From: a virus
Taxonomy: Duplodnaviria > Heunggongvirae > Uroviricota > Caudoviricetes
Direction: 5' to 3' (one strand)
Length of the DNA: 18,836 bases
Virus record (IMG/VR): IMGVR_UViG_2541047960_000007
Location: 1 to 18,836 of that record
Positions 2,599 to 18,836 of the stretch are shown one piece after another. A program made the translations under genes and the position numbers. Under the pieces are notes generated by a model. That model saw nothing but the letters and a program-made list of their open reading frames with translations, made no database searches and was not told where the DNA came from. How positions within the stretch are numbered: the stretch's first letter is position 1; each line of letters begins with the position of its first letter.

Positions 2599-3292
2599 CC
2601 GGGACTGCAGTGTCTCCCGGACGTCATCCGGAAGATGGCTGTAGGGGTTGCCATCCACCTTATGGCTGCCGCTGTAAATCAGCGTGATTTCCACGCCCTG
2701 TTTCTCCAGCGCAGCACCGTAATTACTGTGAGCCATCATGACGCCGATGGAGCCTGTCCGGGCGGTCTGCGTGACCAGACGCCGGGAGGCGGCGCTGGCA
2801 AGCAGCTGACCTGCACTGCAGTTCATGTCGTTGGCCAGCGCCCATACAGGTTTTATGTCACGCACACGGGCGATGATGTCAGCGCAGTCAAATGCCCCTG
2901 CCACCATTCCACCGGGCGTGTCCATATCGAGCAGAATGCCGTCCACCATCGGGTCACTGGCAGCCTGTTGCAGACGGGCGATAATGCCGTTGTAACCGGT
3001 CATCCCCGAATAAGGCTGCAGCGCCCGCGTCCGGCTGACCAGCGTACCGGACACCGGCAGCACGGCGATGCCGTTCATGACCTGATAACTGCGGGCCTGT
3101 CGTGGTCCGTCACCATCACCGGCTAACGCCAGCGTCGCGGGTGCCTCCTGGGCAGTCAGGCTGTCGCCGGACACCGCATCCGTCAGGCGGCTGATCCCTA
3201 GCTGGCCTGCAAGCGCACAAAAGAAAACCCGCGCATAGGCGGGTTCAAGCATCAGCGGCTCATTAAAGGCCATGCTGGCAATATGCGGGAGA

Positions 3293-3312
<20 letters not shown>
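1993..3312 (-). CDS. C: Capsid assembly protease / minor capsid protein C (439 aa, GTG start)
   Basis: Track ORF 1993..3447 has a 45-codon upstream extension. The lambda-C-like sequence begins at (V)TAELRNLPHIASMAFNEPLML, corresponding to a GTG at 3310-3312 and giving 439 aa. It overlaps the end of B by about 20 nt, as in lambda. Confidence 0.9.
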
Positions 3313-6993
<3,681 letters not shown>

Positions 6994-9125: not shown

Positions 9126-9356
9126 TCAACTCAAGAGCCTTATTGCTGCTTCCAGAATTTCTTCTGAAGTAACATGTCGATCCGCGGCTACATAAATGAC
9201 TTTATGATCTCCGGTCAGAGATGGAAACCCTGCGGCCATTACAGTAAGGTGTGTTTTTTCGCCATTTGGATATTCACGCATGATGGTGTTAACTCCAGTC
9301 ATCGCTGGCACTACCACTGCTGGTTCAGAGTTAAAAAAAACTATGATTTTTTTCAT
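9126..9356 (-). CDS. ynfN: YnfN-like small protein (76 aa from internal ATG)
   Basis: Track ORF 9126..9398. Start placed at MKKIIVFFNSEP (ATG 9354-9356) because a strong terminator sits at 9400-9422 immediately upstream. Synteny with Qin ynfN. Confidence 0.55.
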   Translation of the reverse strand: MKKIIVFFNSEPAVVVPAMTGVNTIMREYPNGEKTHLTVMAAGFPSLTGDHKVIYVAADRHVTSEEILEAAIRLLS

Positions 9357-9399
9357 GATGTTACCGTAGTATGTGAGTATCCATCGAATAGACACCAAG

Positions 9400-9438
9400 C
9401 AAAAAAGCTCCCGAAGGAGCCTTCATTTTCACTTTTTT
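9400..9438. terminator. Intrinsic terminator downstream of cspI (minus strand), likely bidirectional
   Basis: Minus strand reads GCTCC-TTCG-GGAGC followed by TTTTTT. On the plus strand the same hairpin is followed by a T-rich stretch. Confidence 0.55.
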
Positions 9439-9627
9439 AAATCCAACGACAGACGGCTGGCATTTAAGTATTGTGAAATATTATCAAATGTAATCATCAT
9501 TGATTTACAAAAGATACATTTTGCCCCGAAAGGATTCATGTCAGAAACATCAAAAGATGATGTTCTATACTGGGAACCATGACAACACGGGCATCTAAAG
9601 TGAATATGGTTTGTAATATTGTCTACC

Positions 9628-9840
9628 TCAAAGCGCCACTACATGAACAGCGGCAGGACCTTTAGGTCCGTTCTCAATACCAAATTCAACTTCCTGATTC
9701 TCAGTTAATGTTTTGAAATCGTTGCTCTGAATTGCTGAGAAATGGACAAACACATCTTTGCTGCCATCTTTCGGCGTGATGAAACCAAAACCTTTTTCAG
9801 GGTTAAACCATTTCACTAAACCAGTCATTTTGTTAGACAT
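9628..9840 (-). CDS. cspI: Cold-shock protein, CspA family (CspI-like, 70 aa)
   Basis: [70 protein letters not shown] carries the RNP1/RNP2 motifs (KGFGFI, VFVHF). Confidence 0.9.
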
Positions 9841-10010
9841 AATTATTACCTTTTGAAGAAATTAGCCCTTGGGCAGAATGGTCCGAAAAAAAATATCAGA
9901 GAGAAAAACCAACAAGGAAATCTCAAGAGGTACAAATAATAAAATTATAACAATGACTGCTTCAGATAAATTTGTAACAAACCAGAACACCATTAACGCA
10001 TGATTAACCA
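9841..10010 (-). promoter_or_regulatory. cspI promoter and long 5' UTR with cold-box-like element
   Basis: About 160-nt AT-rich leader, as is typical of cspA-family genes. The 11-mer ATGCGTTAATG (mRNA sense; plus strand 9991-10001) is shared with the cspB leader. Confidence 0.4.
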
Positions 10011-10202
10011 CCCATAGCAAGGATTACTTTTGTAAAGAAAAACACAGCAATGAAAGAATAGCTTTATTTATTAATAAAACGTGTCATTCTGATTAAGACC
10101 TTTTATCTTACCCTTAAGATTTCAGGAATTTTGGCTCATGGAAGAGTCCTTTTTATTTAAATTTTACATTCCGCGATGTAAATGTTCCGATTTAATATTA
10201 CC

Positions 10203-11226
<1,024 letters not shown>

Positions 11227-11230
<4 letters not shown>

Positions 11231-11538
11231 AGATATTTATGATGAGGACGCTCGTGCTTATTGGCAGGATTTTCAATCTTAAAGGAGTACTGATGCTGCA
11301 GATAAGACTCAACTTTTTCTGACAATTTTTCTGCTACTTCCAGGAAGACTTGCCGGACGCTCCTTCTGGCTGCTGCCTCATAAAACTCCAGCGCGGCACC
11401 TTCAACACGGTCCAGCGAGATGTCCAGGTCAAAAATTTCACCGTCAAAGCGTTCTTTGTCCTGTAAGGCTACAGTTACCGTAACTTTATTCTCAAAATTA
11501 CGGACTCCTTTCACAACCAGTTCATAGTCTTGAGTCAT
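11227..11538 (-). CDS. ydfR: DUF1327 family protein (YdfR-like) inside the lysis cassette
   Basis: 103-aa acidic protein. ATGA overlap with the endolysin start and 5 nt downstream of the holin stop. Function unknown. Confidence 0.7.
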
Positions 11539-11542
11539 TGGA

Positions 11543-11758
11543 TTACTCTCCTCTCGCAGCCTTACGCCTGTCTTCTTTAATCTTGAAATAAAGATTTGTC
11601 AGATACGTCAGCAGGCCAAAAACCAGGCTACCCAGCACACCGATTGCAGCCCACTGTGACGGAGTTACTTTATCGAGTAACTGCAATGCCCAGAAACCAG
11701 CATTACCCGCCGATGTGCCATAGGCAACACCTGTTGTTAACTTATCCATTGATTTCAT
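11543..11758 (-). CDS. essQ: Pinholin (phage 21 S-like class II holin, 71 aa) with dual start
   Basis: [71 protein letters not shown] has two TMDs (Gly/Ala-rich TMD1) and a basic C-terminus. The Met1-Lys-Ser-Met4 dual-start motif is present. The 25-codon upstream extension in the track ORF is probably untranslated. Confidence 0.85.
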
Positions 11759-11977
11759 ATCCTCACCCCGATGTACACGGATGGTGCAATATGTTTGAAA
11801 AGATCGGAGTCTACGGGGTAGTTTTGACAGCACACGTTGTTCTCAACGGCGCTAAAAAAACATACACATTAAAAATGTGGGTAATTATTTTGAAAGAAAG
11901 TCATATATAAAATAATAATACGAGAAATGTTTTCATATTTAGTGTACTGTATACGGCCATTTATACAGGAAAAGCCT

Positions 11978-12148
11978 ATGTCAGAACGTAAAAACTCAAA
12001 ATCACGCCGTAATTATCTCGTTAAATGTTCCTGCCCAAACTGCACCCAAGAGTCAGAACACAGTTTTTCAAGAGTACAAAAAGGTGCCCTTTTGATCTGC
12101 CCTCATTGCAACAAAGTATTCCAGACAAATCTTAAAGCTGTAGCCTGA
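11978..12148 (+). CDS. Small zinc-ribbon protein (56 aa), possibly YnfU-like
   Basis: MSERKNSKSRRNYLVKCSCPNCTQESEHSFSRVQKGALLICPHCNKVFQTNLKAVA carries CxxC...CPHC. AGGAAAAG Shine-Dalgarno 7 nt upstream of the ATG at 11978. The track ORF start at 11927 lacks an RBS. Confidence 0.6.
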   Translation: MSERKNSKSRRNYLVKCSCPNCTQESEHSFSRVQKGALLICPHCNKVFQTNLKAVA

Positions 12149-12203
12149 TTGATTTTATTAGTAACAAGTATTTTTTATATTTTAATAATATATTTAAAGC
12201 AGA

Positions 12204-12232
12204 TAATAAAAAACCCGCCTGAGCGGGTTTGA
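12204..12232. terminator. Intrinsic terminator (strong on minus strand, weaker on plus)
   Basis: AAAAAA-CCCGC-CTGA-GCGGG-TTT. On the minus strand the hairpin is followed by a run of seven T. Confidence 0.6.
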
Positions 12233-12511
12233 GATTGTGGTGCTTTTTGTGGGAGTCATCCACTTACGCACTTTGTTTTGCCATGCCAGCAGTTAGCTTC
12301 TGCTGTAAAACTATTCATGCAGCAAACCTGCACTTCACCACAATGGTTAGCATACTTTTCCTGATTAAGATTTTGCCAAATATGCTAGCCATTGTTTCAT
12401 GTATTGGACCTCCTTACTTTTTATTAAAGAGATCCAATATTCACTACTCTGTCCGTATCTCTACTCAGGCATCAGCCTTCTTCGTTATCGTATACAGACG
12501 AGCGATGAATT

Positions 12512-12727
12512 TTAATCAGTAATGATGACATTTGCTGCTGCAGGACCTTTAGCACCACTCTCTATAGAGAAGGTAACCTTTTGACCTTCAAATAAGGTTC
12601 GATAATTATCATTCTGAATCGCAGAAAAATGCACAAACACATCTTTACTACCATCAACAGGAGAAATAAAGCCGAAACCTTTATCAGCGTTAAACCATTT
12701 TACTAAACCAGTCATTTTATTTGACAT
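12512..12727 (-). CDS. cspB: Cold-shock protein, CspA family (CspB-like, 71 aa)
   Basis: [71 protein letters not shown]. Confidence 0.9.
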
Positions 12728-12905
12728 TCTACATTCCTTAACTTGAGCCTTTCGGCATAAATGGTTTGCATAACAGAAACGACTTCGTACTTAATTGGAG
12801 AGACTCAAAGAAGGAATAAGTGAATAACACCTGAAATGAGAACTGCTTTAGTAAACTACTTCGTATATCGTCTGTTCTTCAAACCGACGCAATCATTAAC
12901 GCATA
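12728..12905 (-). promoter_or_regulatory. cspB promoter and long 5' UTR with cold-box-like element; divergent with the cspF leader
   Basis: Leader of about 170 nt. The same ATGCGTTAATG 11-mer (plus strand 12894-12904) sits at a similar distance from the start codon as in cspI. Confidence 0.4.
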
Positions 12906-13027
12906 GTTGAACATATGAAGCAATGTTTATTTTAGACATCCAGCCATCTTCAACCCCATCAAAAAACTATAGCTTTCTTCAGGAACGTGTGTATAGTGCG
13001 CCAAGTTATCAGTATTAAGGAATTTTT

Positions 13028-13240
13028 TTGTCCCGTAAAATGACAGGAATTGTCAAAACCTTTGACGGCAAAAGCGGCAAGGGTCTTATCACCCCATCCG
13101 ATGGTCGTATCGATGTCCAGCTTCATGTTTCAGCGCTCAATCTCCGCGATGCAGAAGAAATTACCACCGGATTACGCGTGGAATTTTGCCGGATAAATGG
13201 TCTGCGTGGCCCTTCAGCTGCCAATGTTTACCTTTCATGA
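13028..13240 (+). CDS. cspF: Cold-shock-like protein (CspF/CspH subfamily, 70 aa), apparent TTG start
   Basis: (M)[74 protein letters not shown] lies 7 nt upstream of the TTG at 13028. The first ATG is 4 codons downstream. Confidence 0.85.
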
Positions 13241-13294
13241 GCTATATTAAAGCTTTAATTTCAGGCCCCATCGGATCACACATGGAGAGTTTTT

Positions 13295-13384
13295 ATGAAT
13301 AACCCCGTCTGTCTTGATGACTGGTTGATTGGCTTTAAAAGCTTATGCTGTACTTTGGCCGTAATAGCTCTGCTAATAATATAA
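13295..13384 (+). CDS. Candidate 29-aa hydrophobic small protein
   Basis: GGAGAG, then 5 nt, then ATG. Translation [29 protein letters not shown] has a single C-terminal hydrophobic helix. Lies between cspF and the terminator at 13534-13565. Confidence 0.3.
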
Positions 13385-13533
13385 TAAGCAGACTCATTGT
13401 GTTTAGGGACATTGTACTGGAAGAAAACATTTTAAACATCAGGCAAATAACCAAGTCACCAGCTAAATAATAAGTTAACAGACATGAGTCCCGGGATGAG
13501 ATTCAACATTACCATTGCCCCATTTAAAGCACA

Positions 13534-13565
13534 AAACCCGCTCATCAGCGGGTTTTCTACTTTTT
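13534..13565. terminator. Intrinsic terminator, bidirectional (cspF-operon terminator and candidate tR' for the late leader)
   Basis: AAACCCGC-TCATCA-GCGGGTTT followed by TTTTCTACTTTTT on the plus strand. On the minus strand the hairpin is followed by TTTTGTGCTTT. Confidence 0.6.
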
Positions 13566-13595
13566 CTTAACGTCGGGTATACAAAGCCCATCGTT

Positions 13596-13630
13596 GAAAA
13601 AATTTTATCCATATTTTTTGAAAAATGCAA
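13596..13630 (-). promoter_or_regulatory. Candidate sigma70 late promoter (pR'-like) immediately downstream of Q
   Basis: Minus strand TTGCAT (13630-13625), 17-nt spacer, TAAAAT (13607-13602). Lies about 32 nt after the Q stop; the terminator hairpin is roughly 45-60 nt downstream of the predicted start site. Confidence 0.4.
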
Positions 13631-13661
13631 ACATCATGTCGCCATCTTCAGCAAAAATCAT

Positions 13662-16359
<2,698 letters not shown>

Positions 16360-17623: not shown

Positions 17624-18836
17624 GTCAGCTTTAGGTTTAACATAGTATTTTGAGCGTAAATCAATACGGGCATTATCCACTCGTTCATGGACACTCTTTT
17701 CATCATCCAGTGGTATAGGCTCCGGGCCATCAACATACTTTTCCCAGCCCAGCGCTTTCCCGTCATACAGAACGTTAATTTCACCGTCAAAGTTCTCGCA
17801 TACAGTAACAACCGAATGCCTAAGTCGATATCCCCGGCCCTCACTGCGTACCTGAAACGCACTGCTTTTGTACTGGAAAGTGAGATTTTTAGACAGAACG
17901 CGCTTCGCCTGTAGGCTGAAGATATAACCCAGTTCCTCTTCAGAATGGTGCACATCAAGATGAGCATTATCAGTAGTACGAGGCGACGTAGCGAACCGGT
18001 TGTTATAGGCTTCAATAAAGGTCGGCAACCATGCATTTGCTGTTTCAATATCACTGATATTCTGAAGCCGCATTTCTTTGACCAGCCTGTCCTGTAGTGT
18101 CTGATTGGCGCGCTCTACCCGCCCTTTTGCCTGCGGGCTGTTGGCATGGATTGGCTCGATGCCCAGTGTCTTTATCGCACGAGTGAACTGGGTCAGCTCA
18201 CCTTCCCGCTCTGGGTTATTTACCCTGAATATACTGTGTCTATCAGAGTAGAGAGCGAGCGGTACGCCATGATCATTAAGGTAACCCCGGAGGGTTTCCA
18301 TGTAAGCCCGGGTTGTTTCAGCAGGCACAAAACGCAACGCCATCAACGCACTGGTGGCATCATCAATGAAAACGATCAGTGTACATCTGGGGCCTCGATT
18401 TTCAAACCAGTCATGAGGTGAGCCATCAATCTGGATCAGTTCACCGTAAGATGGTCGTCGCATGCGGCGTTGATATATACGGGCAATTTTACGACGGCGT
18501 TCACGCCATAACCCCTCTTCTATCATCCACTTTCTGAGAGTTTCAACGGATAAAGATAAACCGTGTATCTCGCGCAATTTTTCGCACGCAAACGTAGGTC
18601 CAAAATCAGCGTAACGGCCTTTGAGGAGTGAAATTACTGTTGCTCTGAATTCAGTAGAAAAGGAATTATTAGGACGCTTTCCACGTCGGTGGGAAACCAG
18701 ACCAGAAGGCCCTTCATTTCTATACCGTTGCACCTGAACCGCCCCGGGTTTCCTGGAGAGTGTTTTATCTGTGAACTCAGGCTGCCAGATCATCGTTTCC
18801 GATGGAAGCATAATAAGCTTTTTCTGCTTCTGCCGG
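17624..18836 (-). pseudogene. DDE (rve/integrase-core) transposase gene of another IS (IS481/ISNCY-like), 3' end interrupted by IS600; 5' end may extend beyond the window
   Basis: Translation carries D (LIQIDGS), D (LYSDRHS) and E (KGRVERANQ) motifs. Its stop codon TGA (17621-17623) is supplied by the terminal TCA of IS600. The frame stays open upstream of the first ATG to the window edge, and there is no clear RBS. Confidence 0.65.

Follow-up and report, generated by a model that had tools for sequence, protein, structure and literature searches.

A 29-codon reading frame downstream of cspF in a Qin-like prophage is the known small gene ynfS

Several kinds of described small proteins resemble the product of the locus reported here, a 29-codon gene of a Qin-like prophage that encodes the protein YnfS. 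The type I toxins (Hok/Gef, Ldr, Ibs, ShoB, TisB, DinQ and ZorO) share its small size and single hydrophobic helix, and one of them, hokD, is also prophage-borne; the mRNAs of type I toxins are folded and are translationally inert under normal growth. The small inner-membrane regulators AcrZ and MgtS are, like YnfS, shorter than 50 aa, consist of essentially one transmembrane helix, are present at modest levels and were detected by SPA tagging. In contrast to the prophage-borne YnfS, which is found only in Escherichia/Shigella, AcrZ and MgtS are encoded on the chromosome, are conserved between genera and have defined partners. Similar in genomic context are YnfQ and YnfR (both encoded after cspI) and YmcF (encoded after cspG): these are also short ORFs located directly 3' of a csp paralogue and on the same strand, and came out of the same tagging screens as YnfS, but none of them has sequence similarity to it. 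YnfR follows the cold induction of its csp gene; no cold induction of YnfS is reported in the literature.

YnfS itself was described in the cryptic prophage Qin of Escherichia coli K-12, where its gene (b4750, YP_009518791.1, annotated as 'protein YnfS' at 1642122-1642211 of NC_000913.3) has cspF on one side and the Q-type antiterminator gene ydfT on the other. VanOrsdel et al. (2018; PMC6001520) tagged small ORFs chromosomally with SPA and detected YnfS by immunoblot among 36 small proteins; Table 1 of that paper lists ynfS with its flanking genes cspF/ydfT, its coordinates and a sequence identical to the one studied here, and ynfS was also positive in tetracycline-inhibited ribosome profiling. 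Weaver et al. (10.1101/511675) observed strong Onc112/retapamulin initiation peaks at the ynfS start, and the tagged protein builds up during ordinary growth in LB (PMC6001520, 10.1101/511675). Other mentions are brief: a tiling-array study has the ynfS transcript among those lowered by fluoride, and a 2024 y-ome survey places ynfS among the uncharacterised Qin genes. No function of YnfS is reported in the full-text literature on E. coli ynfS.

The window (the whole stretch of DNA that was analysed, 18,836 nucleotides of the IMG/VR virus record IMGVR_UViG_2541047960_000007) contains the same gene. Positions 13000-13560 of the window are 100% identical to E. coli K-12 MG1655, and the 29-codon ORF at 13295-13384 has the same 29-aa translation, the same identical 561-bp DNA context and the same place between cspF and ydfT as K-12 ynfS. 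The Pfam family PF23697 (YnfS) covers the peptide end to end (positions 1-29 of 29, E=4.7e-23, 80.9 bits against a cutoff of 27), a full-length profile match above the curated cutoff that places the peptide in the YnfS family. In other genomes the same peptide carries the PGAP label 'hypothetical protein' (WP_120795389.1). It is therefore a near certainty that the ORF is ynfS, an already catalogued gene, and that reading the window led to the correct rediscovery of a known gene. A preliminary description of this DNA, made from the letters of the window, had presented the ORF as a candidate peptide; as a new find this does not hold, as both the K-12 reference annotation and Pfam have listed ynfS/b4750 for years. 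The features around the gene are as follows.

12512..12727, minus strand: cspB, the divergent neighbour of cspF (ORF and annotation), with a 5' UTR thermoregulator at 12496-12888
13028..13240, plus strand: cspF, encoding the cold shock-like protein CspF (ORF and annotation); putative upstream cistron of the ynfS transcript
13241..13294, plus strand: cspF-ynfS intergenic spacer of 54 nt, unstructured
13284..13289, plus strand: ynfS Shine-Dalgarno sequence GGAGAG, 5 nt before the ATG (read from the sequence)
13295..13384, plus strand: ynfS (b4750) CDS, from the ORF list, equivalent to NC_000913.3 1642122-1642211 and matching Pfam PF23697
13385..13532, plus strand: spacer 3' of ynfS, the most variable segment of the cspF-ynfS unit between lineages
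13533..13566, both strands: putative bidirectional intrinsic terminator (terminator scan on the plus strand, folds, and invariance across lineages)
13602..13631, minus strand: candidate late promoter (pR'-like), TTTGCA - 18 nt - TAAAAT, a weak 9/12 consensus match just downstream of Q
13662..13912, minus strand: C-terminal fragment of the Q-type antiterminator gene (ydfT/quuQ); the K-12 alignment stops at 13912
13913..15866, plus strand: IS100 (IS21 family, istA and istB), 1954 bp, inserted in Q (ORFs of 340 aa and 260 aa, annotation, and junctions)

The coordinates, the 29-aa length and the translation are exactly as the preliminary description gave them. The gene starts with ATG at 13295-13297 and, after 29 codons, ends with a TAA stop at 13382-13384, directly followed by a second TAA. 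The good ribosome-binding site that had been pointed out is present as well: GGAGAG at 13284-13289 is separated from the ATG by a 5-nt spacer, TTTTT at 13290-13294, and the GGAGAG is kept in all five aligned lineages and in all of the 132 loci sampled below. YnfS has a short acidic/polar N-terminus (with D8 and D9) followed by a 19-residue hydrophobic C-terminal segment, and has no C-terminal tail. The Kyte-Doolittle hydropathy averages 2.46 over residues 11-29, and the GRAVY is 1.47 for the complete peptide, so that the description as one C-terminal hydrophobic helix was fair. The peptide has three cysteines; a lipoprotein signal was considered and rejected, as none of the three has a preceding lipobox when checked by eye.

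Sequence alone makes only a modest to moderate case for ynfS. The window contains 14 ATG-initiated ORFs of 25-60 codons that are preceded by a Shine-Dalgarno sequence, and 13.9 +/- 3.6 are found in Markov-random sequence, i.e. such ORFs occur at the random rate. When hydrophobicity is added as a criterion, one ORF is seen and 0.14 are expected per window; a hydropathy equal to that of YnfS is reached by 0.35% of random stop-free 29-codon ORFs of the local composition. That ynfS is real follows from evidence outside the window, since the ORF is identical to the experimentally detected K-12 gene. The claim that the ORF encodes a genuine small hydrophobic peptide with a translation signal is thus borne out by the published immunoblot and by the initiation-profiling peaks, both obtained with an identical sequence. 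As a discovery the ORF carries little weight, being present in the K-12 annotation, in Pfam and in two small-protein papers; its value is one of calibration, in that reading raw sequence alone picked out a real, translated 29-codon gene.

The order cspF - ynfS - Q gene is the same in K-12, in strains CE10, SCU-101 and Z247, and in phages 2H10, PhiR63_1 and HannyBb; ynfS directly follows cspF in every locus that we sampled. Consensus promoter and terminator scans gave no promoter-like or terminator-like site between cspF and ynfS, and the spacer that includes the ribosome-binding site is unstructured (RNA fold of -5.6 kcal/mol, z=+0.94 against shuffles; the z-score is -1.19 for the whole 569-nt cspF-ynfS RNA). 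Because of the missing signals between the two genes and the unstructured spacer, ynfS is predicted to be a second cistron with an accessible ribosome-binding site, most likely co-transcribed with cspF. A consensus scan upstream of cspF identified no promoter. The cspA-type thermoregulator (Rfam RF01766) matches over its full length at cspB (12496-12888, minus strand, 158.8 bits) and at cspI, the gene upstream of YnfQ/YnfR (9601-9986, minus strand, 112.8 bits), but has no Rfam match at cspF. The lack of a thermoregulator leader fits the view that cspF is no classical cold-shock gene. In a study of long-term cultures (PMC7406224), the cspF transcript rose in long-term stationary phase and loss of cspF had no phenotype.

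About 150 nt 3' of ynfS there is a strong hairpin at 13533-13556, AAAACCCGCT-CATC-AGCGGGTTTT, with U-rich tails on both strands. On the plus strand the hairpin (-15.1 kcal/mol, z=-7.0) is followed by UUUUCUACUUUUU, and on the minus strand the same hairpin is followed by UUUUGUGCUUU. Given the U-rich runs on both sides, it looks like a bidirectional terminator: on the plus strand it would end the cspF-ynfS transcript, and on the minus strand it would act as a tR'-type terminator just downstream of Q, the first one met past the late promoter region.

In the lambda-type organisation the late promoter lies next to Q, and in lambdoid phages the Q-modified RNA polymerase reads through the terminator toward the holin gene. 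The position of our candidate late promoter at 13602..13631 fits this organisation, and the promoter block is conserved in all lineages. The Q fragment and the holin/lysis genes all lie on the minus strand and run against ynfS (plus strand), and the path from Q to the holin gene crosses ynfS and cspF on the antisense strand. The proposal that ynfS lies antisense to the late transcript is thus supported by the gene order, and the same antisense gene order is found in the Escherichia phage genomes 2H10, PhiR63_1 and HannyBb. In the prophage of the window, however, late antisense transcription is unlikely to be efficient, because IS100 splits Q. The insertion element (istA at 13999-15021 and istB at 15018-15800) is flanked by the direct repeat (A)CAATCC, and the exact IS100-in-Q junction is found in only three out of 5426 complete E. 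coli genomes, CE10, IAI39 and N32, the lineage to which the window probably belongs. RefSeq annotates the Q fragment of strain CE10 as an incomplete antitermination protein pseudogene, and the prophage in the window is probably without a functional Q. In CE10 an IS600 (IS3 family) transposase is annotated just past the Q N-terminal fragment. Stx phages carry tRNA genes between Q and the lysis genes; none were found between these genes in the window.

We found the ynfS region in 1413 out of 5426 complete E. coli genomes; nearly all copies are at least 99% identical, and 116 records are 90-95% identical. Outside these genomes, the YnfS peptide occurs in five phage records, all from Escherichia phages (PhiR42_1, HannyBb, PhiR63_1 and 2H10, the last with two records), and a scan with a degenerate DNA motif gave the ynfS motif in more than 119 IMG/VR contigs. 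The motif scan over one genome per species (185,579 species) returned only two E. coli records and one from Shigella flexneri. Searches for diverged DNA relatives of the ynfS region in the phage collection gave none, only the same Qin-type module. The K-12 cspG-cspH module has no ynfS paralogue after cspH (tblastn), and the homology between cspG-cspH and cspB-cspF ends exactly at the csp stop codon. As judged from these searches, YnfS appears to be an orphan restricted to Qin-like prophages of Escherichia/Shigella, and in the loci examined it always follows cspF.

For the analysis of variation, loci were sampled via an anchor outside the ORF (the 3' end of cspF), which avoids ascertainment bias, giving 132 loci. 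The ORF is intact in 129 of these; two carry a premature stop (K15stop), and in one the start codon is changed to ATA, so that the Shine-Dalgarno sequence and start codon are kept in 131 loci. The null alleles sit in otherwise intact cspF-ynfS modules, and IMGVR_UViG_2700989507_000025 is among the carriers. Variable positions in ynfS are M1I, N2D, N3K, P4S, D9G, L11M, I12T, K15*, S16I, A22T, V23L and I29M, and the single synonymous change is at C6 (TGT>TGC). There are thus about 12 non-synonymous or null changes against one synonymous change. The neutral expectation for the synonymous fraction is 22-30%, and arithmetic from those fractions gives a probability of roughly 0.1 for at most one synonymous change out of 13; a dN/dS-style test of this kind has low power with only ~13 variable sites. 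There is no sign of purifying selection on ynfS, and no synonymous bias. Conservation with synonymous-biased substitution had been put forward as a mark of a real gene: the first part stood, with the frame kept in 129 out of 132 loci, and the second did not.

Comparison of ynfS with its flanks points in another direction. Between the K-12 type and the 2H10 type, ynfS differs at 2/90 positions, the 3' spacer at 23/148 plus a 7-nt indel, and the terminator at 0/34. Across the between-lineage comparisons ynfS has 2/90 and 4/90 differences, against 23/148 and 18/148 for the 3' spacer, and cspF has 0/213. This lower divergence of ynfS is not decisive, since the values for cspF (0/213) and the terminator (0/34) indicate that mosaic recombination shapes the counts and confounds comparison between segments. 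Within the hydrophobic segment all five substitutions stay membrane-compatible, which has a chance probability of ~0.15. Overall, the population data suggest that ynfS may be a young and weakly constrained gene. The segment at 13385-13532 is a hypervariable patch with 12-16% divergence, flanked by ynfS at 2-4% and by the terminator at 0%; it could reflect relaxed constraint or could be a recombination patch.

Our preferred explanation, which we consider probable though far from assured, is that ynfS is the distal cistron of the cspF transcript, has its own Shine-Dalgarno sequence and encodes a non-toxic membrane peptide with a single helix. Expression of the cspF-ynfS unit in the lysogen is known from the literature (PMC6001520, 10.1101/511675, PMC7406224). 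Under this explanation, cspF and ynfS would be transcribed together from the prophage during lysogeny, against the direction of the phage late operon, as far as the bidirectional hairpin, a terminator that also serves the late promoter region. The exposed, strong Shine-Dalgarno sequence would drive independent initiation at ynfS, and the peptide would probably insert in the inner membrane as a single helix and be non-toxic at native levels. Our best guess is that YnfS would be a small accessory membrane protein without toxicity, encoded in a young 'moron' unit that is lineage-restricted and at most weakly constrained, and that it may modulate a membrane protein or do nothing. Lambdoid morons are accessory units between Q and the lysis genes that are expressed in the lysogen, have a terminator of their own and are transcribed independently of the late operon. 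The cspF-ynfS unit, a candidate of this kind, lies between Q and the holin gene in opposite orientation and has a terminator; a promoter for cspF was not seen in the consensus scan. A point against the proposal is that the mutation spectrum (~12 against one) together with null alleles in three out of 132 loci is what a neutrally drifting ORF would show, and the YnfS peptide may have no function at all. As a possibly young and weakly constrained gene, ynfS has some interest for the origin of small membrane proteins on mobile elements, rather than as a new system.

The preliminary description offered, as a hypothesis, a different reading, that YnfS is a type I-like membrane toxin with late transcription running antisense to it. 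The ynfS mRNA would then be neutralised by an antisense RNA, namely the Q-dependent late transcript or a separate small RNA made for this purpose; we regard this as very unlikely. What speaks for it is that YnfS is a small peptide with one hydrophobic helix (29 aa, with a hydropathy of 2.46, within the size of <60 aa and the hydrophobicity expected of such toxins, and with membrane insertion predicted), that a bona fide type I toxin, hokD, is encoded in the same prophage (3 kb off in K-12), that ynfS is convergent to the late operon, and that there is a weak promoter-like site on the opposite strand at 13405..13376. But this site is a 9/12 match of a kind that occurs at chance level (six found against 4.3 in shuffled sequence), and in the 2H10/Z247 lineages both of its hexamers are altered (the -35 from TAAACA to TAGATA and the -10 from TATATT to TACATT), so that it is not conserved; this check was computational, made from the DNA letters only. 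YnfS has no toxin-family match either: at E<=10 the YnfS family is the sole Pfam match, with Hok, Ldr, Ibs, ShoB, TisB and the like absent, searches of NCBIfam, PADLOC and PDB sequences with YnfS gave nothing, and PHROGs gave only a noise match (0.12). The region has no Rfam sRNA family, and neither the ribosome-binding-site spacer nor the whole mRNA is more structured than shuffles (z-scores as given above), in contrast to the type I systems with their cognate antisense sRNAs and structured, silent mRNAs. Furthermore, ynfS would be a second cistron behind cspF instead of part of a self-contained toxin/antisense cassette, and the protein is translated and accumulates in unstressed LB cultures, the opposite of tight translational silencing; the C-terminal SPA tag could mask toxicity, however, so that a native peptide that is toxic would, strictly speaking, still be compatible with detection of the tagged form. 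As for the late transcript, it arises only once the prophage is induced and depends on Q, a gene that is broken in the window; because it is made only after induction, it cannot keep a toxin silent in the lysogen. Taken together, the suggested toxin role and antisense regulation find no support in family matches, a conserved antisense promoter or an unusual mRNA structure. In a related scheme, YnfS would be a membrane-active peptide (a toxin, or a superinfection-exclusion/abortive-infection factor) whose mRNA is destroyed by the convergent Q-dependent late transcript at lytic growth. Such a type I-like arrangement would have a phage operon transcript, instead of a dedicated sRNA, as its antisense partner, and we give it only a slim chance. 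In our view YnfS is not a component of a toxin-antitoxin system.

A non-toxic membrane peptide has a stronger competitor in the idea that ynfS is translated but is a functionless or near-neutral young proto-gene, born in the A+T-rich 3' part of the cspF transcript with a Shine-Dalgarno sequence that is good by chance; its apparent conservation would then reflect the recent common ancestry of the prophage module. This is a possibility that we take seriously, while considering it doubtful. It agrees with the spectrum of about 12 non-synonymous, nonsense or start-loss changes against one synonymous change in more than 130 loci (compatible with the neutral 22-30%), with the null alleles in three out of 132 loci, with the confinement of ynfS to Escherichia/Shigella without diverged phage relatives or a copy next to cspH, with its listing as uncharacterised in the y-ome survey, and with the loss of the upstream cspF having no phenotype in long-term cultures (PMC7406224). 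On the other hand, ynfS diverges less than its flanks (2/90 and 4/90 against 23/148 and 18/148, a pattern that prophage mosaicism could also give), the Shine-Dalgarno sequence and start codon are kept in 131 out of 132 loci, the five substitutions in the hydrophobic segment are all membrane-compatible (albeit with P ~0.15), and hydrophobicity is far above that expected from local base composition (0.35%). Going one step further, ynfS might be an untranslated chance ORF, as the random rate of short ATG ORFs preceded by a Shine-Dalgarno sequence (14 against 13.9) would allow; this has next to no chance of being right, being refuted by the published translation evidence for the identical sequence (PMC6001520, 10.1101/511675) and opposed by the annotation of ynfS in RefSeq and Pfam and by its intact frame in 129 out of 132 loci.

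The locus is embedded in a larger stretch that resembles Qin: positions 9172-13912 of the window are 99.83% identical to K-12 Qin, with the order cspI; the lysis cassette rzpQ/rrrQ/ydfR/essQ (minus strand); ynfU (plus); cspB (minus); cspF (plus); ynfS (plus); and Q (minus). Before position 9172 and after position 16359 the window departs from K-12 Qin, except for a 92-bp piece at 17624-17715. From these alignments, the prophage in the window appears to be mosaic, with both of its sides unlike K-12 Qin.

Rearrangements are also seen near ynfS in the related phages. PhiR63_1 and HannyBb have ~1.7 kb of extra DNA between ynfS and Q, and in both phages a segment with the candidate late promoter and the 3' end of Q is present twice (in PhiR63_1 at 3290-3397 and 4978-5100). 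One copy adjoins the terminator, and the second, 76% identical, adjoins Q. The duplication of this segment looks like a sign of module insertion by recombination within the segment.

Other known small-protein genes of Qin are also present in the window. For example, ynfU, encoding a zinc-knuckle protein, is at 11978-12148 (plus strand), inside an ORF at 11927-12148. Downstream of cspI, ynfR and ynfQ are found at ~9360-9616 (minus strand), with the YnfR peptide encoded on the minus strand from 9426. Short ORFs trailing csp paralogues are a recurring pattern in the prophage of the window.
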